64,000 nucleotides of DNA from an uncultured Thermoplasmata archaeon (lineage in GTDB: Archaea > Thermoplasmatota > Thermoplasmata > RBG-16-68-12). The position numbers were made by a program, and so were the translations under genes. This document shows, piece by piece, positions 18,636 through 63,908 of this stretch (position 1 is its first letter; each line of letters begins with the position of its first letter). The notes under the pieces were generated by a model. That model ran no database searches and was not told the origin of the DNA. It worked only from the letters and a program-made list of their open reading frames with translations. The DNA lies in assembly GCA_963768855.1 (NCBI GenBank), contig CAVYJM010000006.1, forward strand, positions 224,001 through 288,000, read 5' to 3'.

Positions 18636-21600
18636 ATGGCCCAAGCCATCGAACGCCGGTCCCGGCGAAGCCTCGCAACCGTCCTTCTCCTCCTCGGGGC
18701 GGCGCTCACGCTCACGCCGATTCTGGCCCCGTCCGCGGTCGCTGCGGGCACGACGTACCTGTCCGGGAACGCATGTGCCTCGAGCACCACTCCGACCTGG
18801 GTGAACACGACCACGTACGTCCTAGCCGGGAACGTGACCGTCCCCGTGGGTTGCACGCTCACCATCCAGTCGGGCACGGTCATCAAGGCCGACCCCCAGG
18901 TGCGCCTCTACCTCAACGGCGTGCTCGAGGCGAACGGCACCGCTACGAGCTACATTTCGTTCGACGCGAACCGTACGAGCCAGGTCTGGGGCGGCGTCCA
19001 GTTCAACAAGACCTCCCAGGCCTCCTACCTCCAGTACGCCTCCCTGCACATGGTGGACCACGGCGTCCGCGTCGTCGGAACCCCGCTGTTCTGGGGACCG
19101 ACTCTTTCCCATCTCGACATCGACCATGCGATCGTCGGGGTCGAGTTCCAGGGGGCGAACGCGACGCTGTCCTGGAGCCGAATCAACTACACCACGATGG
19201 CCGTCCACGCCTCCGATGGCGGCTACGGCGGTTACCCGATTATCGTCGCGAACACGATCACGACCGTCCTCTCGAACCCCGCCATCGCCATCTACGCGAC
19301 CAACCTGGTGCAGCCGACGATCCAGTCAAACTGGATTACCTGGGTGAACGGAACGGACGGCTCGGCGGGCGGGGCCTTGCTGACGACCGGCCAGGACGGG
19401 GGCGCGGCCGTGGGCATCCTGGTCACCGGGGGCACCTGGCCAATCGTTGCCGGGAATACGATCAGCCAGGTCCGCGGCGGCCGGGGAGGCGCAGGAGGTT
19501 CGCCTCTCATCTCCGGCAACGGCGGCCGCGGTGGGAAGGGCGGGGACGCGAGCGGAATTGTGATGGCGAACGCCCAGAACTCGAGGGCCCAGACCAACGA
19601 CATCACGGGCGTCGTCGGCGGGCATGGCGGGAACGGAGGGGATGCGAGCGGCCTGGGCACCACCGGCGGCGCGGGTGGTGCGGGCGGCACCGCCATCGCG
19701 ATGGAAGCCCTCGACAACACGGTCACGGGATGGTGGTTCTACAACGACGCCATCGGGATCAGCGGCGGATCCGCGGGAGACGGCGGCGGGGGTCCCCTCT
19801 CGGGCGCCGGTGGGTCCGGTGGCGCCGCGTACGCTCACTTCTTCCTTCAGAACATGGCGGGCAACGCCAGCAACAACCTGGCCCAGACCCTCGTGGGCGG
19901 ATACGGCGGGAACGGGTCCGTCGGCGGCGTGGGCGGGGAGGTCGGCGGCGTCTGGATGGCCGGCATGGGTGGCAGTGGCATCGTGGGCAGCAACACGATC
20001 GCGGGACTCACCGGAGGCCAGGGCGGTGCGGGAGCTCAGCCTACGGCAGGCGGCGGAAACGCGACCGCGCTCCTCCTGATCGGGGACGCAGGCAAGTACA
20101 ACACCACGACCGTCCGGGGCAACACGATCAACGGGATCACCGGAGGCGTTGGGGGCGTCGGCAGCCGCGGCGGCTCGAACGGGGGAGTCGCCACCGCGAT
20201 CGGCGCGGTCTACACGCGCGTCGTTTCGTCTGGGAACACGATCCAGGCGATTACGGGGGGTCAGGGAGGCAGCACGGGTCCAACCTGGACGAACGGCCAG
20301 GGCGGTTCCGCCACGGCCTACGCCGTTGCCCTGACCCCGTCGAGCTCCTCGTCCCAAGATCGGGTCCAGTCCGTCACGAAGGGGCTGCCCGGGTCCGGCG
20401 GGACCAATCCGTCTCCGGCCCAGGCGATCGGCTTCTACGTCCTCGGGAACGCGACCCTCACCTCGGTCGCCTCCCTCACGAACGACACGTTCGCATCCAT
20501 CGGGGAGCGCGACCTCTTCCTCGAGAACTACACGAGGACGACCGCGCTCAACACGACCTTTGCGCCGAGCACGCTTTACGTCGGGCCTGCGGCGAACCTG
20601 ACCGTGCAGAACTTCCTGGCGGTCAAGGTCCTCTGGCCCAACAACGTCACCGCGGTCGCGGGTGCACGGGTCGCCGTCGCGGACAGTGGGGTCGAGGTCT
20701 ACAATCGGACGAGCTCCACGGGGAATCTGAAGTGGATCGTCGTGACGAATCGCGTCTACATCGACAGCGCGATCCCCTTGTGGAACACGACGCGGGTGAC
20801 GGTTAGCTATCTCACCTACACGTTCGGGAACAACCCGCGGACCGTGAACATGACCACGAGCCAGACCCAGTACTTCACGATGATCGACCGAACGCCTCCC
20901 ACGACGGCCATGACCGCCCTGTCCGCGTTCACCACGACGAGGACGTTCACCCTCCACTACTCCTACTCGGATGGCTTCGGAGCCGGAGTCACCAGCGTCA
21001 CGATCTGGGACCGTGTGAATGGGAGCACATGGAACACATACGCAATCATCTCCGTCACCGGCTCCGGGAGCGGGCAAATCTCGTTCACTGCGGCCTCCGA
21101 TGGTCTCTACGAGTTCGCCGCGACGGCGATCGACGCCGCGGCCAACCAGCAGACCCCCGTCCCGCCGACGGCGAACCAGACGTGGACGATCGTCGACACG
21201 ACGAAGCCCGCGTCCCAGGCGACCGCGCTCCCGGCCTGGGAGACGTCTCTCTCCTTCCTCGTGAGCTGGGGTCCCAGCCCGGGCACGACGGACATCGCCT
21301 CGTACACCGTCCAGTACAACAGCACGGGGACGTGGGTGACGTGGCTCAGCTCGACGCTCCTGACCTCCTCCACGTTCACGGCGACGAGCCAGACCGTCTA
21401 CCAGTTCCGGACGCTCGCCCGGGACTTCGCGGGCAACGTCGAGGTGAAGACGGGCAACGACACGTGGACCCTGGTCGACTCCGTGGTCCCGACCTCCGCG
21501 GTCTCCGCGCTACCTAGCTATGAGACGATCGCGGTCTTCTCCATCGCCTGGGGTCCGACGGCGGGCACCTCGGACGTCGCGAACTACACGGTCCAGGTCC

Positions 21601-23495
21601 GCACGGATGGCGGCGCATGGGTCACGTGGCTCTCCGGCGTCACGAACACCTCGGCCACGTTCACGGGCGTCAATGGCCACTGGTATGCCTTCCGCTCCCT
21701 CGCGACGGACGTCGCCGGAAACGTCGAGACGAAGGCGGGGAACGACACGTGGACGACCGTCGACACGAGCCCGCCGGGCTCCCTCGTCGCCTCCCTCCCC
21801 TCCTACGAGACCTCTCTCTCCTTCACCGTCTCCTGGAGCCCCGAGGCCGGGGTCACGGACATCGCCTCGTACCGGATCGAGTACAACCACGGGGCCGGAT
21901 GGGTGTCCTGGCTCGGGGACACCACCGCGACCTCGGCCACGTTCAGCATCGTCGCCCTCGGAATCGTGAGCCCACAGGGCAACTATGCGTTCCGCTCGGT
22001 CGCCACGGACCGCGCCGGGAACGTCGAGACGAAGACGGGCAACGACACGTGGACCGTCGTGGATACGATCGTTCCTACGTCGCTCGTATCCGTCCTGCCC
22101 GCATACGAGACGACCGCGGCGTTCACGGTCTCCTGGAATCCCACCGGGGTCACCTCGGACGTACAGGGCTACACCCTCCAAGTCAGCGCCGACGGCGCCG
22201 CCTGGGTGAGCTGGTTCTCCGGGGCCACGAACCGGAGCGCGACGTTCACCGGCGTCAACGGCCACCGGTATGCCTTCCGCTCCCTCGCGACGGACGTCGC
22301 GGGCAATGTGGAGACCAAGTCCGGGAACGACACGTGGACGATCGTGGACACGACCCCGCCCTCGTCTTCCATGAACGCCCTCCCGCTCTACGAGACCGCC
22401 CTGACGTTCCCGGTGAACTGGGGTCCTGCTCCCGGGACCGCAGACGTGGCGACCTGCGATGTTCAGCTCAGCTTGGATGGCGGCACCTGGACCACGTGGC
22501 TCTCCGGGGTCAACAACCGGTCCGCAGTCTTCTCCGCAGCGAATGGCCACCGGTACGCCTTTCGTTCTCTCGCGACGGATGTCGCAGGCAACGCCGAGGC
22601 GAAGTCGGGAAACGACACGTTCACCTTCGTGGACGCGACCCTGCCGACCGTCGTGCTCGATGCGCCGGAGGGCGCGGGCGTCGACCCGGCTGCCACGCTC
22701 ACGGTCACGTTCAGCGAGCCCATGGACGAAGGGTCCGTGGAACAGGCGTTCTCCCTGTCGCCCAGCATCGATGGCGCCTTCAGCTGGAATGCTGCGGGGA
22801 CCGTCCTCACCTTCACCCCGGCCCGAGCCCTTTCCGCCGGGACGTCGTACACGGTCGTCATCACCCCGGGCGCGAAGGACCTGGCCGGCAACTCCCTGGG
22901 CACGGTCAAGACGTTCACCTTTTCGACCGCGGGCTCGTCGACGGCCGCCGGTTCCTCGTTCGGGGACTGGTGGCCGCTCCTCCTAGCCGTCGTGGTTGGC
23001 GCGATCGTCGCCGTCCTCGTCCTCCTGCGTCGCCGCGGGTCCGCGGCCCAGGAGTTGGCCTCGAAGCCCGCTGCCCCGGCGAGCCCCGCTGCCGGGACGG
23101 AGATCGACGACATCTTCCTCCTCTACAAGGACGGCATCCTGATCAAGCACGAGACCCTGCGCCTGCGGCCCGACATCGACACGGACATCCTGAGCGGCAT
23201 GCTGACCGCGGTCCAGCAGTTCGTCAAGGACTCCTTCCAATCCGAGGACGAGGGCGAGCTGAACGAGATCACGGTCGGTCAGATGCATCTGCACATCGGC
23301 CGCGGCAAGTGGCTCATCCTGGCCGCCCGCGTGGCGGGCGGGGACGTCACGACGATGAACGAGCAGATCCGCAAGGCGATCCAGGACATGGAGGACCACC
23401 ACTGGGACCAGCTCGAGGACTGGGACGGGGACATGGCGCTCTCGAAGGTCCTGGGGCCCTACCTGAAGCGGCTCATCCGCGGCGACTACACGTGA
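18636..23495 (+). CDS. Large surface protein (1619 aa): signal peptide, Gly-rich beta-helix, FN3/Ig-like repeats, SbsA-type Ig domain, TM, cytoplasmic longin/roadblock-like domain
   Basis: Signal LATVLLLLGAALTL...AVAA; GNTIxxITGGxGG repeats; five to six ~100-aa repeats ending in GNVExKxGNDTWTxVD; VTFSEPMD Ig motif; TM WWPLLLAVVVGAIVAVLVLL followed by RRR; tail IDDIFLLYKDGILIKH...DILSGMLTAVQQFVKDSF. Confidence 0.9.
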   Translation: MAQAIERRSRRSLATVLLLLGAALTLTPILAPSAVAAGTTYLSGNACASSTTPTWVNTTTYVLAGNVTVPVGCTLTIQSGTVIKADPQVRLYLNGVLEANGTATSYISFDANRTSQVWGGVQFNKTSQASYLQYASLHMVDHGVRVVGTPLFWGPTLSHLDIDHAIVGVEFQGANATLSWSRINYTTMAVHASDGGYGGYPIIVANTITTVLSNPAIAIYATNLVQPTIQSNWITWVNGTDGSAGGALLTTGQDGGAAVGILVTGGTWPIVAGNTISQVRGGRGGAGGSPLISGNGGRGGKGGDASGIVMANAQNSRAQTNDITGVVGGHGGNGGDASGLGTTGGAGGAGGTAIAMEALDNTVTGWWFYNDAIGISGGSAGDGGGGPLSGAGGSGGAAYAHFFLQNMAGNASNNLAQTLVGGYGGNGSVGGVGGEVGGVWMAGMGGSGIVGSNTIAGLTGGQGGAGAQPTAGGGNATALLLIGDAGKYNTTTVRGNTINGITGGVGGVGSRGGSNGGVATAIGAVYTRVVSSGNTIQAITGGQGGSTGPTWTNGQGGSATAYAVALTPSSSSSQDRVQSVTKGLPGSGGTNPSPAQAIGFYVLGNATLTSVASLTNDTFASIGERDLFLENYTRTTALNTTFAPSTLYVGPAANLTVQNFLAVKVLWPNNVTAVAGARVAVADSGVEVYNRTSSTGNLKWIVVTNRVYIDSAIPLWNTTRVTVSYLTYTFGNNPRTVNMTTSQTQYFTMIDRTPPTTAMTALSAFTTTRTFTLHYSYSDGFGAGVTSVTIWDRVNGSTWNTYAIISVTGSGSGQISFTAASDGLYEFAATAIDAAANQQTPVPPTANQTWTIVDTTKPASQATALPAWETSLSFLVSWGPSPGTTDIASYTVQYNSTGTWVTWLSSTLLTSSTFTATSQTVYQFRTLARDFAGNVEVKTGNDTWTLVDSVVPTSAVSALPSYETIAVFSIAWGPTAGTSDVANYTVQVRTDGGAWVTWLSGVTNTSATFTGVNGHWYAFRSLATDVAGNVETKAGNDTWTTVDTSPPGSLVASLPSYETSLSFTVSWSPEAGVTDIASYRIEYNHGAGWVSWLGDTTATSATFSIVALGIVSPQGNYAFRSVATDRAGNVETKTGNDTWTVVDTIVPTSLVSVLPAYETTAAFTVSWNPTGVTSDVQGYTLQVSADGAAWVSWFSGATNRSATFTGVNGHRYAFRSLATDVAGNVETKSGNDTWTIVDTTPPSSSMNALPLYETALTFPVNWGPAPGTADVATCDVQLSLDGGTWTTWLSGVNNRSAVFSAANGHRYAFRSLATDVAGNAEAKSGNDTFTFVDATLPTVVLDAPEGAGVDPAATLTVTFSEPMDEGSVEQAFSLSPSIDGAFSWNAAGTVLTFTPARALSAGTSYTVVITPGAKDLAGNSLGTVKTFTFSTAGSSTAAGSSFGDWWPLLLAVVVGAIVAVLVLLRRRGSAAQELASKPAAPASPAAGTEIDDIFLLYKDGILIKHETLRLRPDIDTDILSGMLTAVQQFVKDSFQSEDEGELNEITVGQMHLHIGRGKWLILAARVAGGDVTTMNEQIRKAIQDMEDHHWDQLEDWDGDMALSKVLGPYLKRLIRGDYT
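20890..22640 (+). repeat. Tandem ~300-bp intragenic repeats encoding FN3-like domains
   Basis: Recurring DNA such as gccttccgctccctcgcgacggacgtcgc (~21688, ~22272) and aacgacacgtggac at ~295-bp spacing. Confidence 0.8.
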
Positions 23496-26109: not shown

Positions 26110-26216
26110 GGCGATCATTATTTCTGTGAGTGAATAATTATCTCCCGAGCAGCGGCGCTTCCCACGCGGACGCGATGCGGGCACGCTTAAGTGGCCTCAC
26201 ACCGTTTCGGGGAGGC

Positions 26217-27359
26217 GTGGCGGCGGGCCTCGTCTACCATCCGGACTACCTGCGGTACGACTTCGGCGGTGACCACGCCCTGCGGCAGCTCCGAGTGCGC
26301 CTGGCCCGCGATCTCATTGCCGACTACGGCCTCCTCAAGGAGGCGGAGGAGATCCTTCCCATCCCCGCAGGGCCGGAGGCGGTTGCCCGCGTCCACACCG
26401 AGGACTACCTGTCCGTCGTGAAAGACCTGAGCGTCCACCCGAAGGGTGCGGCCTACCAGCACGGCTTGGGCACTGCGGACAACCCGGTGTTCGAGGGGAT
26501 GTACGAGGCGACCCTGCTCCACGTCGGCGGGACCCTGCGCGCCTGCGAGGAGGTCGCTTCCGGCCGCCGGACTCGCGCGATGACCCTGGGAGGCGGCTTC
26601 CACCACGCGATGCGCGACAAGGCGTCCGGGTTCTGCATCTTCAACGATGTGGCGGTGGGCATTCAATCCCTCCTGGAGGACCACAAGCTCCGGCGGATCC
26701 TCTATGTCGACATCGACGCCCACCATGCGGACGGCGTCCAGTCAATCTTCTACGAGGATCCGCGCGTCCTCACGATCTCTCTCCACGAGGACGGTCATTA
26801 TCTCTTCCCGGGGACCGGGTTCACGGACGAAATCGGGGCCGGCGAGGGACGTGGGTATGCGGCGAACGTGCCGCTCCCTCCCTACACCCGGGACGTGTCC
26901 TACCTGTACGCGTTCCAGGAGATCGTGCCCCCGCTCGCTCGCGCGTTCAAACCGGAGCTGATCGTCAGCCAGCTCGGCGCGGACGGTCACTATCTCGACC
27001 CGCTCACGCACCTCATGCTCACCACGGAGACCTACGAGGCCGTCGGCATGATGCTCGACGGACTCTCGAAGGAGCTCTGCGGCGGTCGCTGGATCGCGAC
27101 GGGCGGCGGCGGCTACGAGGTCACAGCGGTGCCGCGCGTTTGGACGGTCATGTTCGCCACGATGAACGGCCGCGAGCTCGAGGACGCGCTGCCCGCGGAG
27201 TGGCTCAGGGAGTGCAACCACCTGGCGGGCTCCGTGCCTCCGGACAAGTCGCTGCGGGACCACGTGCACGCGGAGGAGGAGACCCATGTTCCTCGCGCCG
27301 CGAAACGCGTCGTCGACGAGCTCCGCAAAACGCTGTTCCCTCTCCACGGAATCCGGTGA
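26217..27359 (+). CDS. Zn-dependent deacetylase (HDAC/AcuC family)
   Basis: GGGFHHA, SGFCIFND, DIDAHHADG, SLHE, FPGTG, GADGHYLDPL, GGGGY; start uncertain (26130, 26175 or 26217). Confidence 0.92.
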   Translation: MAAGLVYHPDYLRYDFGGDHALRQLRVRLARDLIADYGLLKEAEEILPIPAGPEAVARVHTEDYLSVVKDLSVHPKGAAYQHGLGTADNPVFEGMYEATLLHVGGTLRACEEVASGRRTRAMTLGGGFHHAMRDKASGFCIFNDVAVGIQSLLEDHKLRRILYVDIDAHHADGVQSIFYEDPRVLTISLHEDGHYLFPGTGFTDEIGAGEGRGYAANVPLPPYTRDVSYLYAFQEIVPPLARAFKPELIVSQLGADGHYLDPLTHLMLTTETYEAVGMMLDGLSKELCGGRWIATGGGGYEVTAVPRVWTVMFATMNGRELEDALPAEWLRECNHLAGSVPPDKSLRDHVHAEEETHVPRAAKRVVDELRKTLFPLHGIR

Positions 27360-27698: not shown

Positions 27699-29258
27699 AT
27701 GACCAACGACGAGGTCGACGAGAAGGTGTCCAAGTCGGCGGAGGATGTGCGCGATGAGTTCGAGGAGAAGATGGACCGGCTCCGTCGCCAGTACGAGCGG
27801 GACCTCCACTCCTTCCGCTACGAGATTGAGGAACGGGAATACCGCCTCAAGGCGTACGAGGACAAGTTCAACAAGATCAAGCAGCCCCCGCTCCTGTACG
27901 CCTACGTCATCCGCAAGGAGGGGCCGGACATGGACGGAAACCAGGTCGTGGTCGCCCGCGCCACAGAGCTCCTGAAGGTCTCCACCGGCCTCGCGGACAA
28001 GACCCAGCTCCAGGTCGGACAGTACGTGTGGGTGCACCCCCAGACCTACGCGATCGTCGAGGGGAGTGCCGTCCGCAACGAGGGAGTGATCGCGAAGGTC
28101 GTGGACATGATCGACGGCAAGCTCGTCGTGTCGGTCGAAGGGGACATGGAGAAGCGCCTCGTGTCGTGCGACAAGTCCGTGTACAAGAAGCTGAAACCCG
28201 GATTCCAGATCAGCGTGCTTCCTCCGACGATGGAGGTCCTCGACATCCTCCCGAACTTGGAGGTGAAGTCTCTCCTCCTCGGGGAGAAGCCGAACGTCTC
28301 CTATGCGGCGATCGGCGGGCTCTCCGAGATGATTGAGCGCATCAAGGACGTCGTGGTCCTGCCCTACCGCGAGGCGAAGCTGTTCGAGCAGATCAAGCTC
28401 GAGGCCCCGCGCGGCATCCTGCTCTACGGCCCGCCGGGCTGCGGCAAGACCCTCCTGGTGAAGGCAATCGCCACGGAGAACGACATGACCTTCTTCAACG
28501 TCAGCATCGCGGACGTCCTCTCGAAGTGGGTGGGGGAGTCCGAGCGGATCATCAAGGAGATTTTCCGCCAGGCCCACGAGAAGAAGCCGAGCATCGTTTT
28601 CTTCGACGAGATCGAGGCCCTCTTCACGGTCCGGGGGATGATGGACACGTCGGGCGTGCACAAGAACATCATCGCTCAGATCCTGAGCGAGATGGACGGC
28701 CTGGTCCGCCTGCATGACGTGTTCGTGATCGGAGCGACGAACCGCGCGGACCTCGTCGACCCCGCGTTGCTGCGGCCCGGACGCTTCGACGAGATCATCG
28801 AGATTCCGAGGCCCGAGCGGGCCGCCGCGGAGGAGATCCTCAAGATTTACCTGACGGACGACCTGCCGCTCGCCGTGGACGTGGTCCAGGAGTACGGCGG
28901 CCGCTCGGAGGCCGCGCAGGGTCTGCGGCGCTTCGTCCTGGACGAGCTCTATGGCGAGAACAAGTGGGTCAAGGTCAAGCTGGACGCCGAGGCGAACGAG
29001 GCGATCAAGACGGTCAAGCGGAAAGACATCATCTCCGGCGCGATCATCGAGGCCATCATCAAGACGGCGAAGAAGAACTACGTGAAGCGTGTGATCGCCC
29101 TGAAGAAGGGCGACCGGAAGAAGGAGGGCCTGACGGCGCGGGACCTCGAGATGGCCATCGAGGAGGAATGCAAGGAGCACGCGATCACGGAGATGTACAT
29201 CTACGAAAAGCGGCAGCGGGAGGTCTTCCGGACCGGCGCGGACCCGATGGTCGGGTGA
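27699..29258 (+). CDS. arc: ARC/Mpa-type proteasome-associated AAA ATPase
   Basis: N-terminal coiled coil then QPPLLYA and a double-length interdomain (two OB folds); Walker A GPPGCGKT; Walker B FFDEIE; SRH TNRADLVDPALLRPGRFD; ARC-type insert YLTDDLP...DIISGAIIEAIIKTAKK. Confidence 0.85.
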   Translation: MTNDEVDEKVSKSAEDVRDEFEEKMDRLRRQYERDLHSFRYEIEEREYRLKAYEDKFNKIKQPPLLYAYVIRKEGPDMDGNQVVVARATELLKVSTGLADKTQLQVGQYVWVHPQTYAIVEGSAVRNEGVIAKVVDMIDGKLVVSVEGDMEKRLVSCDKSVYKKLKPGFQISVLPPTMEVLDILPNLEVKSLLLGEKPNVSYAAIGGLSEMIERIKDVVVLPYREAKLFEQIKLEAPRGILLYGPPGCGKTLLVKAIATENDMTFFNVSIADVLSKWVGESERIIKEIFRQAHEKKPSIVFFDEIEALFTVRGMMDTSGVHKNIIAQILSEMDGLVRLHDVFVIGATNRADLVDPALLRPGRFDEIIEIPRPERAAAEEILKIYLTDDLPLAVDVVQEYGGRSEAAQGLRRFVLDELYGENKWVKVKLDAEANEAIKTVKRKDIISGAIIEAIIKTAKKNYVKRVIALKKGDRKKEGLTARDLEMAIEEECKEHAITEMYIYEKRQREVFRTGADPMVG

Positions 29259-29261
29259 GCG

Positions 29262-30560
29262 ATGAAGAAGATGGTCCAGGGGACCGAGCACGAGTACACC
29301 CTGTTCTGTCGCAGGATGGGGTCGATGGGGTTCGATCCCCACACCGTGGCGCTGGATCTGCTCCGCGAGAGCGACCTCCACCTCGCAGGCGAGTACATCA
29401 CGAACGGCTCGCGCGTCTACTACGACGTCGGGCACTTCGAGGTCAGCACGGCCGAGACGACGAACTTCCACGACGTCGTCGTTTGGGAGAAGGCCGGGGA
29501 GAAGGTCCTCGACTGGCTCCGCCGGGTCATGGAGGACAAGTACACGGACGGGTCCACGAAGATCCACGCGTTCAAGAACAACACCTCGCCCGACGGCACG
29601 TCCTACGGATCCCACGAGAACTACTGCGTCGCTCGCGGCGTGCCGTGGCCGGGCCGCTTCGTCCGGGACCTCGTCCCCCATCTCTCGACGCGGGTTATCT
29701 ACACCGGCGCGGGCGACATCATCCGCGGAAAGTACGTCCTGTCGCCGATGGCCTTCCTCACCTCCCAAGTGATCAGCGGGGAGACGATGCACGACACGGG
29801 CATCCTGAACACGCGCGATGAGCCGCATGCGGACGGCCGCCTCTGGCGTCGCCTGCACGTCATCGTGGGGGACGCCCTCATGAACGAGACGGCGATCATG
29901 CTGCGCCACTTCACGACCTCCGCCGTCCTCCAACTCATGGAGGCGGACGGCCTGAGGGACGTGCCCCGACTCAAGGACCCCGTCCGCGACCTGTGGCACA
30001 ATGTCGAGACCCGGATCCCGGACCAGTGGCGGATCGAGCTCGAGGACGGATCCGTCGTGTCTCCGATCGACATCCAGCGGTACTATCTCTCAAAGGTCGA
30101 GCCGCTGGTCGAGGACGCGTGGGAGAAGCGCGCCCTGAAGACCTGGGAGGAGGTCCTCGACGACCTGGAGAACCGGCGGTCGAAGGAGGCCGCCCACCGC
30201 GTCGAGTGGCTGGACCGATGGTTTGCCATCCAGGCCGCCACGGAGGACAAGGAAGGCCCCGACGTCGAGATGATGGCGTGCAAACAGTACTCCGAGATCG
30301 GTGCGGAGCGCTCCCTGTTCTACAAGAGGCAGAGGGAAGGCCTCGTCGACCGGATCACGGACGACGAGACGATCAAGGCCGCGATCACGACGCCACCGGA
30401 CGACACCCGTGCACGTCTTCGCCGGGAACTTTGCGACACCTTCAATATCGAGATGATTGATTGGTCTGTACTGGTCGTGAACGACGGGAGCCGGCGGCGG
30501 ATCGATCTTCCGGATCCGTACGCCACAAAGTTGGAGGCGACCTATGCCACTGCAGGTTGA
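29262..30560 (+). CDS. Pup-ligase/deamidase (PafA/Dop) family enzyme
   Basis: GTEHEY, NGSRVYYDVGHFEVSTAE, WEKAGE, KNNT...SYGSHENY, NTRDEPHA, RRLHVIVGD, PPDDTRARLR, DWS..VND...DPY, all collinear with PafA/Dop. Confidence 0.93.
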   Translation: MKKMVQGTEHEYTLFCRRMGSMGFDPHTVALDLLRESDLHLAGEYITNGSRVYYDVGHFEVSTAETTNFHDVVVWEKAGEKVLDWLRRVMEDKYTDGSTKIHAFKNNTSPDGTSYGSHENYCVARGVPWPGRFVRDLVPHLSTRVIYTGAGDIIRGKYVLSPMAFLTSQVISGETMHDTGILNTRDEPHADGRLWRRLHVIVGDALMNETAIMLRHFTTSAVLQLMEADGLRDVPRLKDPVRDLWHNVETRIPDQWRIELEDGSVVSPIDIQRYYLSKVEPLVEDAWEKRALKTWEEVLDDLENRRSKEAAHRVEWLDRWFAIQAATEDKEGPDVEMMACKQYSEIGAERSLFYKRQREGLVDRITDDETIKAAITTPPDDTRARLRRELCDTFNIEMIDWSVLVVNDGSRRRIDLPDPYATKLEATYATAG

Positions 30561-30720
30561 GGAGAAGCCGAAGAAGCGCAAGAAGCAGGAGAAGAAGCTA
30601 GAGTTCGAAGCGGGAAAGGTCTTCAGCCCGGGTGAAGTGAAGGAAGAGGACTTCGAGCTCGACCTCGACTCGGCACGGTATCGGGCATCGAAAGGGGAGG
30701 GCGGCGATCGCCGCGCTTGA
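30544..30720 (+). CDS. Pup/UBact-like small modifier, 58 aa (MPLQVEEKPKKRKKQEKKLEFEAGKVFSPGEVKEEDFELDLDSARYRASKGEGGDRRA)
   Basis: Translated by hand; SD GGAGG at 30533-30537; overlaps the PafA/Dop stop; highly charged and low in hydrophobics; DSARYRASKGE resembles the UBact C-terminal RYRQxxGE. Confidence 0.75.
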   Translation: MPLQVEEKPKKRKKQEKKLEFEAGKVFSPGEVKEEDFELDLDSARYRASKGEGGDRRA

Positions 30721-30783: not shown

Positions 30784-32064
30784 ATGGCCACCCACGTGGA
30801 CACCTTGGAGAACGGCCTCAAGGTGATCCTCCGCCCCATGCCGGACACGAAGGCCCTCTCTTGCTGGGTCACGTACCGCGTCGGCTCCCGCAATGAGGTC
30901 CCCGGCATGACCGGCTCGACGCACTGGGTCGAGCACATGCTGTTCAAGGGAGGCGGGAAGCTCAAGAAGGGCGAGATCGACCGCCTCATCAGCCGGGTCG
31001 GCGGCAAGATGAACGCCTTCACCGACACGGACTTCACGACGTACTTCGAGACAATCCCCGCGTCCGAGATGGACACGGCCCTCATGATCGAGTCCGAACG
31101 GATGCGGAACGCCGCCTTCGATCCGAAGGAGGTCGAGGCGGAGCGGACCGTCGTGATCAGTGAGCGGGAGGGCGCGGAGAACCAGCCCGAATTCCTCGCC
31201 GAGGAGGAGCTCTGGGGCCTCGCCTTCCACGTGCACCCGTACCACTGGACCGCGATCGGGTACAAGCAGGACCTGGCCAAGCTGGACCGCGACCCTCTCT
31301 ACCAGCATTACCTCCGGTACTACGCGCCGAACAACGCGTTCCTCGTCCTCGTGGGCGGCTTCGACCCTGCGGTCGCGATGCAGCACATCCGGGAGTCCTT
31401 CTCGCCCCTGAAGCCCGAGCCGATCCCTCCGGTCATGCGCCTCGTGGAGCCGGAGCAGCACGGGGAGCGCCGGAGTGACCTCGAACGGCCCGGGGCGACG
31501 GACCTCTTCAGCGTCGGCTGGCACATCCCGCCGTTCGTCCACGAGGACACGCCCGCGCTGATCCTCCTCGCGACGATCCTGGGCGGTTGGCATGGGCTCA
31601 CCCCCTTCGCCGCGGGCGACTGGCACTCCCGCTCAAACCGGCTGTACCGTGCGCTCGTCGACGCGAAGCTCGCGACGGACGTCGGCGTGCGGCAGGAGCT
31701 GAAGCTCGACCCCGCGCTCCTGATCGTCAGCGCGACCCTCGCGGGCAAGATTCCGCTGGACCGGGTCGAGCACGTCCTGGACCGCGAGGTGGACCGCCTG
31801 CGCAAGGCCCCGCCCTCCAAGGCGGAGATGGACCGCGCGAAGCGGCAGGTTCGCTCGTGGTACCGCTACGAGCACGACGGGGTGACGTACCAGGGGATGC
31901 TCCTGTCCACGCTCGAGGCCCTCTCCGGCTGGGATGCGGGGGAGGGCATCCTGACGAAGGTCGACCGGCTCCGGCCGAACCACGTGCGGGAGGCCGCGCG
32001 CCGGTATCTCGTGGAGGACCACCGAAGCGTCGTCCGCTTCCACGCCCAGGAGGCGCCGTCGTGA
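30784..32064 (+). CDS. M16 (pitrilysin/MPP-like) metallopeptidase, catalytic subunit
   Basis: LENGLKVI, YRVGSRNE, GSTHWVEHMLFKG (HxxEH), NAFT, YAPNNA. Confidence 0.95.
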   Translation: MATHVDTLENGLKVILRPMPDTKALSCWVTYRVGSRNEVPGMTGSTHWVEHMLFKGGGKLKKGEIDRLISRVGGKMNAFTDTDFTTYFETIPASEMDTALMIESERMRNAAFDPKEVEAERTVVISEREGAENQPEFLAEEELWGLAFHVHPYHWTAIGYKQDLAKLDRDPLYQHYLRYYAPNNAFLVLVGGFDPAVAMQHIRESFSPLKPEPIPPVMRLVEPEQHGERRSDLERPGATDLFSVGWHIPPFVHEDTPALILLATILGGWHGLTPFAAGDWHSRSNRLYRALVDAKLATDVGVRQELKLDPALLIVSATLAGKIPLDRVEHVLDREVDRLRKAPPSKAEMDRAKRQVRSWYRYEHDGVTYQGMLLSTLEALSGWDAGEGILTKVDRLRPNHVREAARRYLVEDHRSVVRFHAQEAPS

Positions 32065-33317
32065 CGCTCCCCGACCGCGCGGTTCTGGACAACGGGGCGG
32101 TCGTCATCTCGCAGCCCCTCTCCTCGAACCCCTTCATCGCCTTCCGGGGCAGCGTCCCCGCCGGGACGGTCTCGGAGGGCACGGACTTCGGCGTCGCCGA
32201 GTTCGCGGCGCGGCTGCTCCTCGGCGGCACGCGGCGCGCCTCCGCCGCGAAGCTCGCGGACCGCCTCGAGGGGATCGGCGCGACCCTGGAGTTCCACAAC
32301 TCCCAGGAGCTGCTCGTCTTCTCGGGACGTTGCACGCGGGAGACCGTCGCCGAGACCGTGCGGATCCTGGTCGAGTGCCTCTCGCAGCCCGCTTTCCCCG
32401 CCAAGGAGGTCGAACGCGTCCGAGGTGAGCTCCTGAATGACCAGCGCATCGAGGAGGACGATCCCCGCCAGCGCGCCTACCGCGAGTTGCTCCGGATCGT
32501 GTTCCCGAAGGACCACCCGTACGGGCGGGACCCGAAGGGCGGCATGGACCGGATCCGGCGCATCAAGCGGGCGGACCTCGTCGCGTTCTACGAGGAGCAC
32601 ATCGGTCCGGACGGCCTCATCTTCGCGATCACAGGGGACGTCGACCGCCAGGTCGTCGAGACGGCCGTGGCGGCCCCCCTAGCTCGATTCCACGGAGAGG
32701 CCGTCGCGGTGCGAATTCCTCCACCGCCGCCGTACAAGCCGCGGAACGCGACGATTCCCATGCCCCACAAGTCCCAGGCGGACATCGTTGTGGGCGCCCC
32801 GGCGATCCCCCGGTGCCACGACGACTACTACCCGCTCCTCCTTGCCAACCTCCTCTTTGGTCGGATCGGGCTCTTCGGGCGCCTCGGCACGACCCTGCGC
32901 GACGAGCTCGGCCTCGCGTACTACGCGTACAGCAGCCTGGACGCGCGCACCGCGGGCGGCATGTGGTCCATCAATGTCGGCGTGAACCCGTCGAATCTCG
33001 CACGGGCCATCGAGGGCGTGCGGCACGAGATGGACCGCCTCCGCTCGAACCCCTTCCCGGCGGGCGAGATCCAGGATGGGAAGGACAACCAGGTCGGCTC
33101 GCTCATTGTCTCCCTCGAGCGGAACGCGGAGGTCGCGTCCGAGCTGCACCGCATGGAGTACTACGGCCTCGGGATGGACTTCCTCGAGCGGTACGGGGAG
33201 ATCATCCAGGGGCTCACCGCCGAGACCGTGCGCGCGACCGCCGCGAAGTACTTCAGCCCGCCGGAGAGCTCGATGGTCGTCGCCGGTCCGGTCGGCCGGT
33301 CGCGTCTCACGCTGTGA
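32061..33317 (+). CDS. M16 peptidase, non-catalytic partner subunit
   Basis: LDNGAVV, GVAEFAARLL (no HxxEH), SQADIVVG, RDELGLAYY; GTGA start/stop overlap with the catalytic subunit. Confidence 0.9.
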   Translation: MTLPDRAVLDNGAVVISQPLSSNPFIAFRGSVPAGTVSEGTDFGVAEFAARLLLGGTRRASAAKLADRLEGIGATLEFHNSQELLVFSGRCTRETVAETVRILVECLSQPAFPAKEVERVRGELLNDQRIEEDDPRQRAYRELLRIVFPKDHPYGRDPKGGMDRIRRIKRADLVAFYEEHIGPDGLIFAITGDVDRQVVETAVAAPLARFHGEAVAVRIPPPPPYKPRNATIPMPHKSQADIVVGAPAIPRCHDDYYPLLLANLLFGRIGLFGRLGTTLRDELGLAYYAYSSLDARTAGGMWSINVGVNPSNLARAIEGVRHEMDRLRSNPFPAGEIQDGKDNQVGSLIVSLERNAEVASELHRMEYYGLGMDFLERYGEIIQGLTAETVRATAAKYFSPPESSMVVAGPVGRSRLTL

Positions 33318-33449: not shown

Positions 33450-36400
33450 ATGAAGTCATTGACACAACGGACACTCGTAGTGCTGCTGGCATGGGTGATG
33501 GTTTCCGCGGCGCTCGTCGTCGCGGCTTCGGGGTCGGTGCGGGCGGCCGCCGTCACGGCTCGTGGACCGGCCGTCGTGATGACGGGAACGCCGGCCCCGC
33601 TGGTTCCGGCCCCCGATCCTGCGGTGGAGCGCTTCCTGCAGGGTAGTCCGGCGGATCCGAGTTACTGGGGGAAGATGAGTTCCTCCGTCCAGTCCGCGGC
33701 CCGCGTGGCGAGCGGGACGATCGAGGTCGCCATCTACACGGACGAGGTGTCCGAGCTCGGTGCCCTGCTGCGGAAGGCCGGAGTCGAGACCCAGATCGGG
33801 TCCGTTCCGTCGACCTACGCCGGACCTCGCGTGGTGACGATCGAGGTCCCCGCGAAGCTCCTGGAAAAGATTGCGACCCTTGACCACGTCGTCGCGGTCG
33901 CCCCGGCCGTCGTGCCGCAGGTCCCCGACCAGGCCGACCCGGACCTCCCCGCCCGCGCGGACGCGGGCGCCCCGGCACCGACGATCATCGAGGCGGGCAA
34001 GGGCCACCAGGTCCCGGAGGCATGGGCCCTCGGCTTCAACGGCACGGGGATCAACGTCGCGGTCATGGACAGCGGCGTCGACTTCGGCCACCCGGACCTC
34101 CAGGGCACGTTCGCCCGCGATCCGAACCCCAGCTCCCCGTACTACAACTGGCCGATCGCCTTCGACCCCAATTCGATGTTCCGTTATCTCGTCGGCGGCA
34201 TGACCTTCCCCGCCGCTCCGGGCTCCTGGTATGTCAACACGAGTTTCGCCACGACGGCGAACCCGGGGAACGGGACGCTCGATGCATCGTTCAACGGCCA
34301 CTTCTACAACGTCTTCGGCATCCCGAGCCTGAGCGGGTTGTACCACCTCGGGGTCCACCCGGACCTCACCCTCTACTACTGGTGGTTCGGGGAGCGCCCC
34401 GCGGTCCTCGTGACCGACGCGAACACCCCGGGCGTCTATGACACGGTCTACGTCGACCTGAACGACGACTACGTGTTCGGCGACGATCGGGCGGTCGACG
34501 TCAACTCGCCCGTGGCTTGGGACGACCTCGATACGGACGGGGTCGCCGACGTGTCCGGCGGCATGGTCTACTTCATCGCGGACGGGATCAACCCCGTCCC
34601 CTACTCCGACGTGGTCGCGAACCGGTACGGCCTCCCCCTGCCCACGCCCGGCTCCGGCGATCTGGTCGCCTTCATGATTGGCGACTACTTCGCACCGGGC
34701 GGCGACCACGGGACTCTCTGCTCCTCCGCGATCGTGGCCCAGAACCAAACGGGCCACGTCCTCGGGTTCGCCCCGGGGGCCAAGCTCATCGCGGTAGGTG
34801 ACATCTACTCCGGCGGCTTCGCCTACGACATCTATGAGTTCGTCGGCGAAGGCTACGACGGCGTCTCCGACACGGGCGACGAGGCCCAGGTGGCCTCCGC
34901 CTCCTTCGGCTACTCTGGCATCTTCAACGACGGCTGGGACTACGAGGCCCGCTTCGTCGAGCTCATGTCCTACATCAACATGGGCACGGCCTTCACCGTG
35001 TCCACGGGGAACGGCGGGCACGGTTTCGGCACGGTGACCTCTCCGGGTTCGAGCAACGGCGTCATCGCCGTGGGCGCGTCGACGAGCTACAACAAGGAGC
35101 TCGGCGTCGAGGGCTTCGAGGATGCAAACCACTCCACCTTCGGAGACGTCCAGCCGTGGTCCAACCGGGGTCCGAGCACCCTCGGGAACACGAAGCCCGA
35201 CGTGGTTACGGTGGGCGCTTGGGCGACCGGTGATGGGGCGCTCAACTCCTTCGGGTTCGCCCCGCCATGGACGGTCTGGGGCGGGACCTCCCTCTCGGCC
35301 CCCGCCACCGCAGGGATCGTCGCACTCATTGCGGAAGCCTGGACTAGCAACGGCATGGGCACGCCCTGGGCGAACTTCATCGGGAAGCTCCTCCTGGACG
35401 ACGGCGCCACGAACATCCACTACGATCCGCAGGTGATGGGACACGGGCTGGCGAACGCCTACCGGTCCGTCCTCGCCGCGAGCCTCCAGGGAGGCGTCCT
35501 CACGTACGACGCCAACGCGTCGTTCCTCCCGAGCGCGGACTGGACCGCGGGGGACTATCGGGGCGTGAAGTATCCGAGCTTCGCCCGGATCATGTCGCCC
35601 GGCCAGACGAACACAACGACCCTTGCGGTCCTGAACGCGGACCAGGTGAACGAAGATGATATCACGGTCTCGGACTGGGAGCTCCAGCTCTCGGACACGC
35701 AGACCTTCGCGTTCAACGCCTCCAACGCGGAGGAGAGCACTCCCGATTTCCTGCGGCCGGACTACCTCATGGACCTGACGCCGTACGTCCCGGCGGAGAC
35801 CAACCTCGTCAAGGTCACGGTCAGCTACCCGTACTCGGAGTTCGACCCGAACGGGAACTACGTGCAGGACAGCAGCTGGCGCCTCGTCCTCTATGATTGG
35901 GCGGACTACAACACGAACGGGATCTTCTGGAACGACGCGAACGGGAACGGCGTGGTCAACGCCGGAGAGATGGACAGCTCGAGCGGCACGGAGGTCATGC
36001 GTTTCACCTACGGCTACCCGACGGGGACGAACATCGAGGCCTTCGTGCACGATCCGATCTCGAGGATCCACACGGGTCTGTTGCTCGGCCTCCAGCACCG
36101 CGCCGTCTCGGCCCTCGTGCCGACCACGAACCTGACCGTCACGGTGGACTACTATGAGGCGGCGGACGCGCCGTGGCTGTCGACGAGCCTCCCGAGCGCG
36201 GTCATCTCGCCGCTGGGGATGATCCCGGTGTTCGTGGACGTGACCCTGCCCGCGAACCAGCCCTTCGGCACACTCTCCGGGATGGTCACGATCTCGAACT
36301 CCACGGACGTGGAGACGGAGATCCCGGTCCTCGTGAACGTCGCAGCGACCGGGACGGACTTCACCTTCGGTGGAAATTCGTCGAGCACCGCGTTCCTGAA

Positions 36401-38693
36401 CAACAACCGGGTGTTCGGCGGGAACGACTGGTCGTGGCGCGCAGAGGCCGGGGATTGGCGATTCTTCTTCACGGACATCCCCGACAGCACGCCGATCAGC
36501 CCGGGAGACACCCTCCTCGTGCACACCTCGTGGGAGAACGTCCCGACGGACATCGACACCGTGATCATGGGCCCGACGCCGGACTTCCAGTTCAGCGGGC
36601 CCGGCAGCCCCTGGGGACCGTACACGCTGGACACGGTTGGTGCGAGCGCGAATACCCTGATTACCGCGGGTACCTGGGCGTTCCAGACCGCCACGGGCGG
36701 TCCGGAGGAATGGGTCGCCGCCCCGCTCCAGACCGGGCTCCACGAGATCGCGCTGCACGATGTGAACTACGCGGGCTTCGGTCCCTCCGAGGTGTTCATG
36801 GGAGAGGTCGGTCGCTTCAGCCTGACCCCGAACCCGTGGATCGTGTCCACGCCCAACCTGACGGGGTCGTCGTCGTTCGCAACGAACTCCTCCCTCACCC
36901 TCCCCGGTCTCGATGTGGCAGCCTTCGGCGTCGCACAGCCCGTGGCGGAGGACAGCGTGTCGATCGGCCAGGGGGACTCCTGGATGACCTTCTTCTCCGC
37001 GGCGAACATCGGGGTCATCGACCTGCAGATTGACGAATCCTACCCGCAGGGGATGGACATCGATCTGTACCTCTATCGTTGGACCGGAAGCACGTACGCG
37101 CTGGTGGCGTCCTCGGCGGGTTCTACGGCCTCGGAGCACATCCGGCTCACGATGCCGGCCGATGGGGACTACGCGGTTCTCGTCGACGGGTACTCCGTGC
37201 CCGCGGGGACCGGATACTTCGACTATTTCCAGGCGGTGGTCGCGGGTGCGAACCTGATGCCGATGAACGTGCCGACCTCGACGATCCCGGCGGGAATCCC
37301 CTCCGGGTTCGACGTTGCCTGGAACTTCGACCCGGAGATCGAGCCCTTCCAGATCTATCTGGGCGTCCTCTTCGTCGGACCGAGGGGCGCCCCCGCAATT
37401 GAAGTGGACGGGCTCTTCCTCACGTACGACGACTACGCGCCTCTCGTGCAGTCGACCGACCCGGCGAACGGGACCTCGATTCGGACGCGCGTGCCGACGA
37501 TCACCGTGAGCTATGTGGACCCGGAGATCACCTCCGGCATCTCGAACGTGGCGTTCCTGCTGGACGGGCTGGACATGACGTTCGCCGGAACCTGGAACGA
37601 GACGAGCTTCGTGTGGTCCATGCCGTTTGACCTTTCCGAGGGAACCCACGATCTGGAGATTGTGATTTGGGACCACGCCGGTTTCAGCACGTCCTACACC
37701 TGGGTCTTCACGGTCGACACGACGGCGCCTCCGCTCTCGGTGACTTCGCCGGCGTACGCGCTGACGAACAGCGCCTTGGCGACGGTCGCCGGAGCCACTC
37801 AGGCGGGTGCGAAGCTCACCGTCAACGGGAACCTCGTCACCGTGGGCTCAGGCGGCGCGTTCAGCACGACGGTCACGTTGGTCGAAGGCACGAACACCCT
37901 GACCGTGGTCGCGACCGATCTTGCCGGGAATTCCGCGACCGTCGTGAAGACGGTCGTTCTGGACACGCTCCCTCCGGCGGTGGCCATCACGTCCCCCTCG
38001 GACGGCGACCCCATCGCCGACGTCGTCCATGTGGTCGGCACAGCCGAGCTCGGCGCACACCTCACGGTGAATGGGGTGAACGTCGCGGTCGACTCGAGCG
38101 GAGGCTGGAACCTGGATCTCTCCTTCGCGGGCGGCAGCCACACGATCACCGCCACGGCGACGGATACGGCCGGGAACTCCGCGACGGCGACCGTGACGCT
38201 CGCCTTCGACACCACGGCACCGATCGTGTTCGTGACAGCTCCCGCGAACGGCCTCACGACGAACCACTCCTCAGTGGTCGTCAGCGGGACGGTCGATGAT
38301 GTCACGGCCATCGTCCTCGTTAACGGAATCGTGGTGCATCCGAACGCCCAGGGCGCGTGGTCGGTACCGATCGCCCTCCTGGAAGGCAGCAACACGATTA
38401 CCGTGTCCGCGATGGACCCGGCCGGCAACATGGCGACCGCGGTGACCCGGCAGGTGACGTACAACTCGCCGATCCCCGGTCTCCAGAACGGGATCGACAA
38501 CAACCAGAACGGGATTGATGCGAACCAGCAGTCGATCAACGGGCTGTCCGGGAACCTGCTGTACGGCCTCATCGGCGTCCTCGTCGTCGCGCTCGCGGCG
38601 ATCGGCGTGGTCTATGTCCTCCTGAGCCGGAAGATTGTGGCGAGCAGCGGGAAGAAGCTCGAAGCACCGAAAGAGAACAAGGGAGAGCCCTGA
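33450..38693 (+). CDS. Membrane-anchored pyrolysin-like S8 serine protease (1747 aa) with PPC and Ig-like repeats
   Basis: Signal peptide; VAVMDSGVDFGHPDL (Asp), long insert, DHGTLCSS (His), GNGG oxyanion Asn, KPDV, GGTSLSAP (Ser); DIDLYL PPC domain; DTTAP Ig repeats; C-terminal TM. Confidence 0.93.
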   Translation: MKSLTQRTLVVLLAWVMVSAALVVAASGSVRAAAVTARGPAVVMTGTPAPLVPAPDPAVERFLQGSPADPSYWGKMSSSVQSAARVASGTIEVAIYTDEVSELGALLRKAGVETQIGSVPSTYAGPRVVTIEVPAKLLEKIATLDHVVAVAPAVVPQVPDQADPDLPARADAGAPAPTIIEAGKGHQVPEAWALGFNGTGINVAVMDSGVDFGHPDLQGTFARDPNPSSPYYNWPIAFDPNSMFRYLVGGMTFPAAPGSWYVNTSFATTANPGNGTLDASFNGHFYNVFGIPSLSGLYHLGVHPDLTLYYWWFGERPAVLVTDANTPGVYDTVYVDLNDDYVFGDDRAVDVNSPVAWDDLDTDGVADVSGGMVYFIADGINPVPYSDVVANRYGLPLPTPGSGDLVAFMIGDYFAPGGDHGTLCSSAIVAQNQTGHVLGFAPGAKLIAVGDIYSGGFAYDIYEFVGEGYDGVSDTGDEAQVASASFGYSGIFNDGWDYEARFVELMSYINMGTAFTVSTGNGGHGFGTVTSPGSSNGVIAVGASTSYNKELGVEGFEDANHSTFGDVQPWSNRGPSTLGNTKPDVVTVGAWATGDGALNSFGFAPPWTVWGGTSLSAPATAGIVALIAEAWTSNGMGTPWANFIGKLLLDDGATNIHYDPQVMGHGLANAYRSVLAASLQGGVLTYDANASFLPSADWTAGDYRGVKYPSFARIMSPGQTNTTTLAVLNADQVNEDDITVSDWELQLSDTQTFAFNASNAEESTPDFLRPDYLMDLTPYVPAETNLVKVTVSYPYSEFDPNGNYVQDSSWRLVLYDWADYNTNGIFWNDANGNGVVNAGEMDSSSGTEVMRFTYGYPTGTNIEAFVHDPISRIHTGLLLGLQHRAVSALVPTTNLTVTVDYYEAADAPWLSTSLPSAVISPLGMIPVFVDVTLPANQPFGTLSGMVTISNSTDVETEIPVLVNVAATGTDFTFGGNSSSTAFLNNNRVFGGNDWSWRAEAGDWRFFFTDIPDSTPISPGDTLLVHTSWENVPTDIDTVIMGPTPDFQFSGPGSPWGPYTLDTVGASANTLITAGTWAFQTATGGPEEWVAAPLQTGLHEIALHDVNYAGFGPSEVFMGEVGRFSLTPNPWIVSTPNLTGSSSFATNSSLTLPGLDVAAFGVAQPVAEDSVSIGQGDSWMTFFSAANIGVIDLQIDESYPQGMDIDLYLYRWTGSTYALVASSAGSTASEHIRLTMPADGDYAVLVDGYSVPAGTGYFDYFQAVVAGANLMPMNVPTSTIPAGIPSGFDVAWNFDPEIEPFQIYLGVLFVGPRGAPAIEVDGLFLTYDDYAPLVQSTDPANGTSIRTRVPTITVSYVDPEITSGISNVAFLLDGLDMTFAGTWNETSFVWSMPFDLSEGTHDLEIVIWDHAGFSTSYTWVFTVDTTAPPLSVTSPAYALTNSALATVAGATQAGAKLTVNGNLVTVGSGGAFSTTVTLVEGTNTLTVVATDLAGNSATVVKTVVLDTLPPAVAITSPSDGDPIADVVHVVGTAELGAHLTVNGVNVAVDSSGGWNLDLSFAGGSHTITATATDTAGNSATATVTLAFDTTAPIVFVTAPANGLTTNHSSVVVSGTVDDVTAIVLVNGIVVHPNAQGAWSVPIALLEGSNTITVSAMDPAGNMATAVTRQVTYNSPIPGLQNGIDNNQNGIDANQQSINGLSGNLLYGLIGVLVVALAAIGVVYVLLSRKIVASSGKKLEAPKENKGEP

Positions 38694-63568: not shown

Positions 63569-63573
63569 GGGGA

Positions 63574-63884: not shown

Positions 63885-63908
63885 GGGAAAGCCCAACCGA
63901 GGCCATCC

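Follow-up and report, generated by a model that had tools for sequence, protein, structure and literature searches.

SAMP tagging relies on the E1-like enzyme UbaA and proceeds by adenylation and thioester formation on the C-terminal Gly of a beta-grasp protein that has a C-terminal Gly-Gly. The UBact loci of Gram-negative phyla, reportedly described by Lehmann and colleagues in 2017, are said to hold homologues of both Dop and PafA, usually together with PrcBA, and a modifier ending in G-[E/Q]. Pup is listed only for bacteria, has a C-terminal G[EQ], and is encoded next to the enzyme gene (Iyer et al. 2008, PMC2588565). Pup's C-terminal residue is either Glu or Gln, and Gln is deamidated by Dop before ligation (PMC8599861, PMC2588565). 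The literature searched treats pupylation as bacterial, and archaea are said to tag only via ubiquitin-fold SAMP/Urm1. The subject of this text is a locus of three genes, coding for an ARC/Mpa-type AAA+ ATPase, an enzyme of the Pup_ligase (PafA/Dop) family, and a small modifier candidate. It lies in a 64,000-nucleotide stretch of DNA from an uncultured Thermoplasmata archaeon (assembly GCA_963768855.1, contig CAVYJM010000006.1, here C6, positions 224001-288000), which as a whole is called the window. The archaeon, from soil or sediment, belongs within the Thermoplasmatota to the order RBG-16-68-12, also known as Ca. Angelarchaeales (PMC9038741).

The locus is read here, with somewhat more confidence than doubt, as a Pup-like gamma-glutamyl-lysine tagging system with one bifunctional enzyme, an internal reactive Glu or Gln, and a functional tail behind it. 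Like the actinobacterial Pup system, it has a Pup_ligase-family enzyme of the glutamine-synthetase (GS) fold with the same catalytic Asp, phosphate Arg and His, and metal Glu residues, a small charged tag encoded beside the enzyme, and an alternation of Glu and Gln at the predicted reactive residue after Gly. Further likenesses are the predicted binding of tag to enzyme and an ARC-type ATPase that combines an OB domain with a single AAA module. In contrast, it has one enzyme in place of the PafA and Dop pair, and this enzyme lies outside both clades and lacks the Dop-loop. The archaeal tag has no detectable similarity to Pup, and its reactive residue is internal and followed by a conserved tail of 6-9 residues. 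The two Arg at the Glu end of the enzyme pocket are replaced, and the ATPase has no GQYL. A bacterial-type 20S is also absent here, whereas the host archaeon has its own 20S, PAN, and Cdc48.

With the UBact loci it shares the character of a Pup-like tagging locus outside the Actinobacteria with a divergent small modifier. With SAMP/Urm1 it would share lysine isopeptide tagging in archaea, but the chemistry and the fold are unrelated, as the system here would use an acyl-phosphate on the Glu side chain of a disordered peptide. The internal-residue, one-enzyme form would be a variant of the pupylation kind. Its tag has a predicted attachment residue that precedes a conserved tail, a form not found described in the literature searched. 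With a conserved Pup-like module in abundant archaea of soils and sediments, archaeal proteostasis would have a second tagging route, unrelated in its chemistry to the first.

The KEGG entries K13527 and K13571 presumably stand for mpa and pafA. Both are enriched in Ca. Angelarchaeales according to Diamond et al. 2022 (PMC9038741), where they are listed as 'components of the archaeal proteosome'. This listing is the one trace of the isolated earlier mention of an archaeal UBact locus to which the original prediction had referred; in the literature searched, no archaeal Pup or UBact system is described.

Gene organisation

The three genes are co-oriented and tightly coupled, as had been predicted, with a gap of 3 bp between the ATPase and enzyme genes (29259-29261) and an overlap of 17 bp between the enzyme and small genes (30544-30560). 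The ribosome-binding site of the small gene, GGAGG, is spaced 7 nt from its ATG. In 29 of 29 related loci examined, the small gene comes next after the enzyme gene and always overlaps with its end. Wherever a locus of the order has enough flank, the ATPase gene lies immediately upstream of the enzyme gene. The more distant ~50% clade has a non-adjacent ATPase, with an orthologue elsewhere in 3 of 4 genomes. The ATPase is co-inherited with the enzyme, and the combination of ARC-type ATPase, PafA/Dop-family enzyme, and small Pup-like modifier candidate stands as a genuine, lineage-wide archaeal locus.

The small protein

The small protein comprises a basic N-terminus (KKRKK), an invariant KLEFEAGKVF, an acidic DFELDL, and a C-terminal part reading ...KG-E52-GGDRRA, for which the consensus is A-x-K-G-[E/Q]-G-G-D-R-R-[T/A/S]. 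It is still about 70% identical where the enzyme is at 65% identity. The variable columns at codon positions 1, 2, and 3 number 24, 22, and 55 of 59, and the differing codons are synonymous in 5916 cases and non-synonymous in 2666. The codon-position pattern indicates purifying selection on the small gene. A profile search gave 358 relatives, and among the 120 matches listed every source name is 'hypothetical protein'. The gene resembles that of Pup in its length (58 aa, in a 50-90 range), in adjoining a PafA-family gene, and in a product that is predicted to bind the enzyme groove.

Residue 52 is Glu in 61 and Gln in 58 of 120 non-redundant relatives, and no other residue occurs there. The Glu or Gln state switches at least 10 times on a tree of 49 distinct enzymes. 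A site that admits only these two residues, with such repeated switching, suggests side-chain chemistry at residue 52. The tail behind it reads GGDRR[T/A/S] in 111 of the 120 relatives. The ~50% clade (e.g. SW_10_69_26) has AGTRT[K/R/T]xx(x) after ...DFDLDLDSARFQGKKGQ. In the locus L103 the small protein reads ...KGQGGDRRQALA with the tail GGDRRQALA, and in L057 it ends ...KGQGGDRSGNK with the tail GGDRSGNK. The tails vary by clade around the common core [GA]-G-[DT]-R, and the part before G[E/Q] is conserved.

The claim that the small protein is Pup-like by sequence was not borne out, and no match of the small proteins scanned bears the name UBact. It has no Pfam or NCBIfam match at E up to 10, where a bacterial Pup control scores 53.8 bits (PF05639/TIGR03687). 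Its hhalign comparison with a Pup is null (probability 0.1%), as is that with the Pup-like protein of the bacterial locus L060, and a profile search of the PDB gave a chance match only. An identity with Pup by sequence was rejected on these comparisons, which show no detectable homology, and the internal G[E/Q] with a conserved tail also sets the protein apart.

A small protein of this kind might not be conjugated at all. It could be a cofactor, regulator, or adaptor of the enzyme or ATPase, such as a tail-blocking inhibitor, with the enzyme acting on a small amine or on a Glu or Gln of another protein. The lack of sequence homology to Pup, the internal reactive residue, the loss of two substrate-end Arg, and a predicted contact surface (tag residues 17-57) longer than the last 27 residues of Pup on PafA would fit this. 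It is nevertheless improbable. Without side-chain chemistry one can hardly account for a strict Glu-or-Gln site that has switched this often within a motif otherwise invariant, the catalytic residues for ATP-dependent acyl-phosphate chemistry are all retained, and the sister lineage has a canonical C-terminal G-E.

That sister lineage is represented by L055 (GCA_053529615.1, contig JAIYFR010000006.1). Like the locus in the window, L055 encodes, in this order, an ATPase (545 aa), an enzyme (437 aa, about 38-40% identity), and a basic/acidic small protein of 57 aa. It is unlike it in that the small protein ends ...RDGE-stop, both pocket Arg are kept, and the ATPase ends ...VEYQ with a penultimate Tyr. 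MAFFT aligns the C-terminal Glu of its tail-less small protein (P0316) with residue 52. The L055 enzyme (P0133) is the nearest representative from outside the order, and only its gene neighbours (TYW2, geranylgeranyl reductase GGR, and DUF357) suggest that L055 is archaeal.

L060 is a bacterial-looking metagenome scaffold from ENA with a contig of 6.9 kb. It encodes a 770-aa ATPase, a 485-aa Pup_ligase homologue, and a 79-aa protein that ends ...VRQVTGE and gives no match to the Pup model. Also present is a second Pup_ligase homologue, of 537 aa and with HEAT repeats fused to it, and there is no 20S gene within the 6.9-kb contig.

The enzyme

The hidden Markov model (HMM) search proposed along with the original prediction gave 302 bits for the enzyme with PF03136, against a cut-off of 25, over residues 43-402. 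The PafA model TIGR03686 (261 bits, cut-off 551) and the Dop model TIGR03688 (256 bits, cut-off 492) both match below their cut-offs. In the PDB the enzyme matches Dop with 182 bits and PafA with 164 bits, and its NCBI name is 'PafA2 family protein'. IQ-TREE trees unite all archaeal enzymes in a single long-stemmed clade (100/100 and 100/99), which lies outside those of Dop (98/95) and PafA (93/93). These trees are unrooted, and distant GS-fold outgroups were judged unreliable at that distance. Within the archaeal clade the tail-less lineage is sister to all tail-bearing enzymes. The expected grouping with PafA or Dop has to be given up in favour of a separate archaeal clade.

All Dop and no PafA have the Dop-loop, an insertion of 40-65 residues before strand beta2 (PMC8599861). 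It is not present in the aligned archaeal enzyme, which also reads Y-Y-D-V-G as in PafA. Asp55 shares its column with the catalytic Asp of C. glutamicum PafA, D64, whose counterpart in Dop is D94-95; the D64N mutant structure 4BJR shows N there. In the alignment, Arg185 and His199 match R227 and H241 of Dop, the residues that bind the catalytic phosphate. The residues E9, E11, D55, E60, E65, H118, E119, R185, and H199 are invariant in a 42-sequence alignment. By these alignments, the enzyme retains all metal, ATP, and phosphate residues.

The genome has a single copy of PF03136. The same holds for each genome across the order and the ~50% clade, although all tags examined in the ~50% clade carry Gln. 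The one-enzyme design bears on the divergence of PafA (forward) and Dop (reverse), which reciprocal mutagenesis left unsettled (PMC8599861).

Pocket arginines and the tail

PafA R201, which makes a weak salt bridge with the C-terminus of Pup, aligns to Thr179 of the archaeal enzyme (counted on the 4B0T chain). PafA R185, the Arg of the 'S-Q-R' motif, aligns to Met163. Among matched sequences of bacterial representatives, the R201 column is Arg in 85 of 85 and the R185 column is Arg in 70 of 70. The close tail-bearing homologues have T-G in the R201 column (115/115) and M, S, or G in the R185 column, and the tail-bearing ~50% clade has T-G and C. The tail-less L055 keeps Arg in both columns. 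As aligned, both Arg of the Glu-end pocket are dropped exactly where the tag gained a tail with an invariant Arg, and the pocket no longer seems suited to a free alpha-carboxylate. On the tree, the losses of Arg and the gain of the tail fall on a single branch and count as one event. An internal reactive residue with a tail, paired with two lost Arg, is a testable structural prediction and would be a new tag design.

The tail could instead be a pro-peptide of the same system. A protease, either the M16 pair downstream or another, would trim the tag after residue 52, and Pup-like ligation would follow. The tail-less sister lineage ends exactly at G-E, the tails differ in length and sequence by clade behind a conserved part, and the M16 pair starts 63 bp downstream in this genus, all of which would agree with trimming. 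The KEGG entry K07263 is taken here to be an M16-type protease. Diamond et al. 2022 (PMC9038741) include it among four protease entries of the KEGG orthology that they list as enriched in Ca. Angelarchaeales. Trimming is still considered unlikely. Both Arg of the Glu-carboxylate end are lost exactly in the tail-bearing clades, and the tail core [GA]G[DT]R is conserved over clades, with GGDRR nearly invariant in the order; a pro-peptide that is cut off and discarded would not usually be so conserved. The M16 adjacency occurs in one genus only and is absent from other families and clades with the same tail. A TATA-like CTTTATGG about 27 nt before the M16 ATG suggests, on the author's reading, a separate transcript, and the complex model puts tail residues 53-57 on the enzyme.

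The M16 peptidases are of the insulinase type, and their two genes overlap by 4 bp. As a dedicated maturase the pair is judged unlikely, given the genus-only adjacency, a distance of about 1 kb in some genomes, and the promoter-like element before M16; nothing ties M16 to the tag.

Predicted complex of enzyme and tag

With both partners given as alignments, the model of the enzyme-tag complex scores 0.77 (runs 0.79, 0.77, and 0.70) versus 0.00 for the best control. Among solved complexes 58 of 80 attain this mark, as do 2 of 110 mismatched pairs. At least 79% of contacts are common to the runs, and the predicted local distance difference test (pLDDT) of the partner is at least 58. Tag residues 17-57 contact enzyme residues 11-17, 33-40, 55-58, 81-89, 100-118, 163-179, and 326-376. 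The contacting stretches 11-17, 55-58, and 107-118 hold the active-site residues E11, D55, and H118, and the tag side includes residues 39-57. The model supports binding of the tag by the enzyme.

The ATPase and the proteasome

The ATPase is made up of a coiled-coil-like region at the N-terminus, an OB domain, and a single AAA module. It matches PF00004 (AAA) with 140 bits and the proteasomal OB_C domain PF16450 with 33 bits, the latter being the sole OB domain found by Pfam. Its best NCBIfam model is TIGR03689 (pup_AAA), with 353 bits over model positions 24-482 of 512 and a cut-off of 504.75; the PAN model gives 273. The protein aligns to Mpa (7px9) over residues 21-468.

Mpa and PAN use a penultimate Tyr for docking to the 20S. 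The archaeal ATPases end in GDPMVG in the order and in L103; the ~50% clade has GVEVQ at this end, the tail-less lineage LVEYQ, and the bacterial Mpa control from Ca. Moduliflexus AGQYL. Among these archaeal ATPases a penultimate Tyr is found only in the tail-less lineage, and no HbYX or GQYL-type end occurs in the order. A bacterial-type 20S (prcB/prcA) was not found in the genome, and no 20S gene is near the operon. The genome holds canonical archaeal alpha and beta subunits, PAN, and two Cdc48-type genes. The proteasome link of the system is weak because the ATPase ends in an invariant DPMVG without the docking Tyr. The supposition that the system feeds the archaeon's own 20S proteasome finds no support here, given this terminus, the lack of a linked 20S gene, and the PAN and two Cdc48 that the genome already has. 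An ATPase without the docking Tyr raises the question of whether tagging leads to degradation.

A second, divergent archaeal-type pair of 20S genes, beta then alpha, is located at C11:7436-8597 on the minus strand of the same genome, G000 (L004/L005). Neither of its genes reaches the NCBIfam equivalog cut-off (208 of 224 and 185 of 219 bits), and a partial duplicate is at C17:21643-22311. This pair was rejected as a dedicated protease, since its alpha paralogue is confined to family f1 and part of f3, and families f2, f4, and f6 have the operon without it. Two ThiF/E1-like genes are present in the genome (G000 C6:574923-575627 and C6:329270-329968), and a SAMP/Urm1-type pathway probably coexists with the Pup-like module.

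Proposed mechanism

In the Pup-like tagging system favoured here, the tag would be the 58-aa, highly charged, and probably disordered small protein. The single PafA/Dop-family enzyme would bind it through residues ~17-57, deamidate residue 52 where this is Gln, and use ATP to phosphorylate the side-chain carboxylate of Glu52. It would then join Glu52 to target lysines via a gamma-glutamyl-epsilon-lysine isopeptide bond. The same enzyme may also remove the tag, because no second paralogue exists. The ARC-type ATPase would recognise and unfold tagged proteins, and may hand them over to a 20S proteasome. The balance tips slightly towards the tail ([GA]-G-[DT]-R...) being kept on during catalysis, because the enzyme has given up both Glu-end Arg in every tail-bearing clade. 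The invariant tail Arg may take over the role of both lost pocket Arg.

A farther-reaching form of this proposal is offered only tentatively, and is thought rather doubtful as a whole. It would be one-enzyme pupylation via an internal Glu, in which the tail Arg completes the active site (substrate-assisted catalysis) and one enzyme deamidates, ligates, and perhaps de-tags. Because the clade branches outside both PafA and Dop, it may keep an undivided ancestral state of the pupylation enzyme, which would reopen the question of an origin of Pup-type tagging alongside the archaeal proteasome and not in Actinobacteria.

Several points weigh against a Pup-like tagging system. The small protein has no match to any Pup model and a null hhalign result, and the C-terminal G[EQ] that defines Pup is internal here, with G51-E52 followed by GGDRRA. 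There is no Dop-type paralogue for the Gln-form tags. The covariation of Arg and tail, though mechanistically pointed, is one evolutionary event and not repeated evidence, and an enzyme that is missing two active-site Arg could have altered its reaction or lost it. Likeness to the solved PafA-Pup and Dop-Pup structures may account for part of the complex score. The ATPase, judged by its terminus, lacks the penultimate docking Tyr, and no 20S gene is linked to the locus.

Distribution and archaeal origin

A survey of archaeal metagenome-assembled genomes (MAGs), another of the proposed checks, found the enzyme gene in 56 of 79 genomes of the order, from 5 of 7 families. A sample of about 336 genomes from other orders of the class gave no occurrence, and among about 400 genomes sampled from the rest of the phylum the gene occurs in 21, from at least 7 further families. 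All 62 relatives in named genomes (62/62) are archaeal MAGs from many studies, including the RBG_16 and Angelo-soil EA genomes, and these are labelled Thermoplasmata, Thermoplasmatota, or 'Methanobacteriota'. The archaeal system is restricted to several Thermoplasmatota lineages.

An assembly or binning artefact, or a recent bacterial insertion without lineage-wide meaning, would also place such genes on an archaeal contig. The MAG (2.87 Mb, 93.6% complete) has an estimated contamination of 7.7%, the GC content of the operon is slightly lower than that of its surroundings, and a genome of the same genus (L007) has an extra PafA-like fragment and an Mpa-like ATPase that are probably actinobacterial contamination. 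Such an origin is extremely improbable, however. The contig is longer than 1 Mb and carries the archaeal SRP RNA, a bona fide PAN (590 bits), and an archaeal 20S beta subunit. The order-wide presence of the operon, the SDR and HDAC-family flank that is syntenic across four families of the order, and the exclusively archaeal named relatives argue in the same direction. The nearest bacterial enzyme representatives are only about 35% identical, and the archaeal clade has a support of 100/100. A chimeric or bacterial contig, which the original prediction had named as grounds for withdrawing it, was rejected as far as sequence data reach.

The extra PafA-like gene of L007 (G063:C74) matches PF03136 with 574 bits over its full length and adjoins an ATPase with the C-terminus ...TGHYL. 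Its identity with the archaeal enzyme is only 35%, and its contig is probably an actinobacterial contaminant of that MAG.

Contigs from three soil metatranscriptome runs (two studies) span all three genes, with relatives at about 85-95% identity. They are a weak hint that relatives of the operon are expressed, as such contigs cannot give strand or level and DNA carry-over is possible.

Features and neighbouring genes

The positions of the genes and motifs are collected in Table 1.

Table 1. Genes, motifs, and neighbouring features of the locus, in positions of the window.
Feature	Position	Strand	Length	Basis or remark
fn3 and Big_5 open reading frame (ORF)	18636-23495	+	1619 aa	probably secreted or surface protein
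HDAC-family gene	26130-27359	+		PF00850; directly upstream of the ATPase gene
ARC/Mpa-type AAA+ ATPase gene	27699..29258	+	519 aa	ORF and family match
Walker A GPPGCGKT of the ATPase	about 28428-28451	+		one AAA module
ATPase C-terminal pentapeptide DPMVG	29241..29255	+		invariant in the order
Pup_ligase-family (PafA/Dop-family, glutamine-synthetase fold) enzyme gene	29262..30560	+	432 aa	PF03136
Asp55 codon, column of the catalytic Asp of PafA (C. glutamicum D64)	29424..29426	+		alignment
Enzyme stretch with Met163 and Thr179-Gly180	29748..29798	+		replaces PafA R185 and R201 (C. glutamicum)
GGAGG ribosome-binding site of the small gene	30532..30536	+		within the end of the enzyme gene; read directly
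Modifier candidate	30544..30720	+	58 aa	conservation, codon pattern, predicted complex
Glu52 codon, predicted reactive residue	30697..30699	+		Glu or Gln in relatives
Tail GGDRRA, 3' of the predicted reactive residue	30700..30717	+	6 residues	conserved in relatives
M16 peptidase, first gene	30784-32064	+		insulinase-type
M16 peptidase, second gene	~32061-33317	+		insulinase-type
Subtilase S8, glucodextranase-B, and Ig-like repeat ORF	33450-38693	+	1747 aa	probably secreted or surface protein
Archaea_SRP RNA	63573-63885			

The locus had been described as embedded among archaeal housekeeping genes with no obvious compositional break. The archaeal setting is confirmed, but the neighbours, an SDR gene, an HDAC-family gene, M16 peptidases, and a subtilase, are not housekeeping genes, and the GC content dips mildly to 0.64 at the operon versus about 0.67 around it. 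The subtilase gene codes for one of two very long products in the window that are probably secreted or located at the surface, the other being the fn3 and Big_5 protein.

The HDAC-family gene is separated from the ATPase gene by a spacer of 339 bp with a TATA-like element. HDAC-fold enzymes hydrolyse N-epsilon-acyl-lysine amides, so that the gene product might conceivably free lysines or strip them of tags, but the data are explained by inherited synteny. As a functional partner the gene was set aside, since its adjacency holds in four families and is absent from L103, the ~50% clade, and L055; it is treated as inherited synteny.

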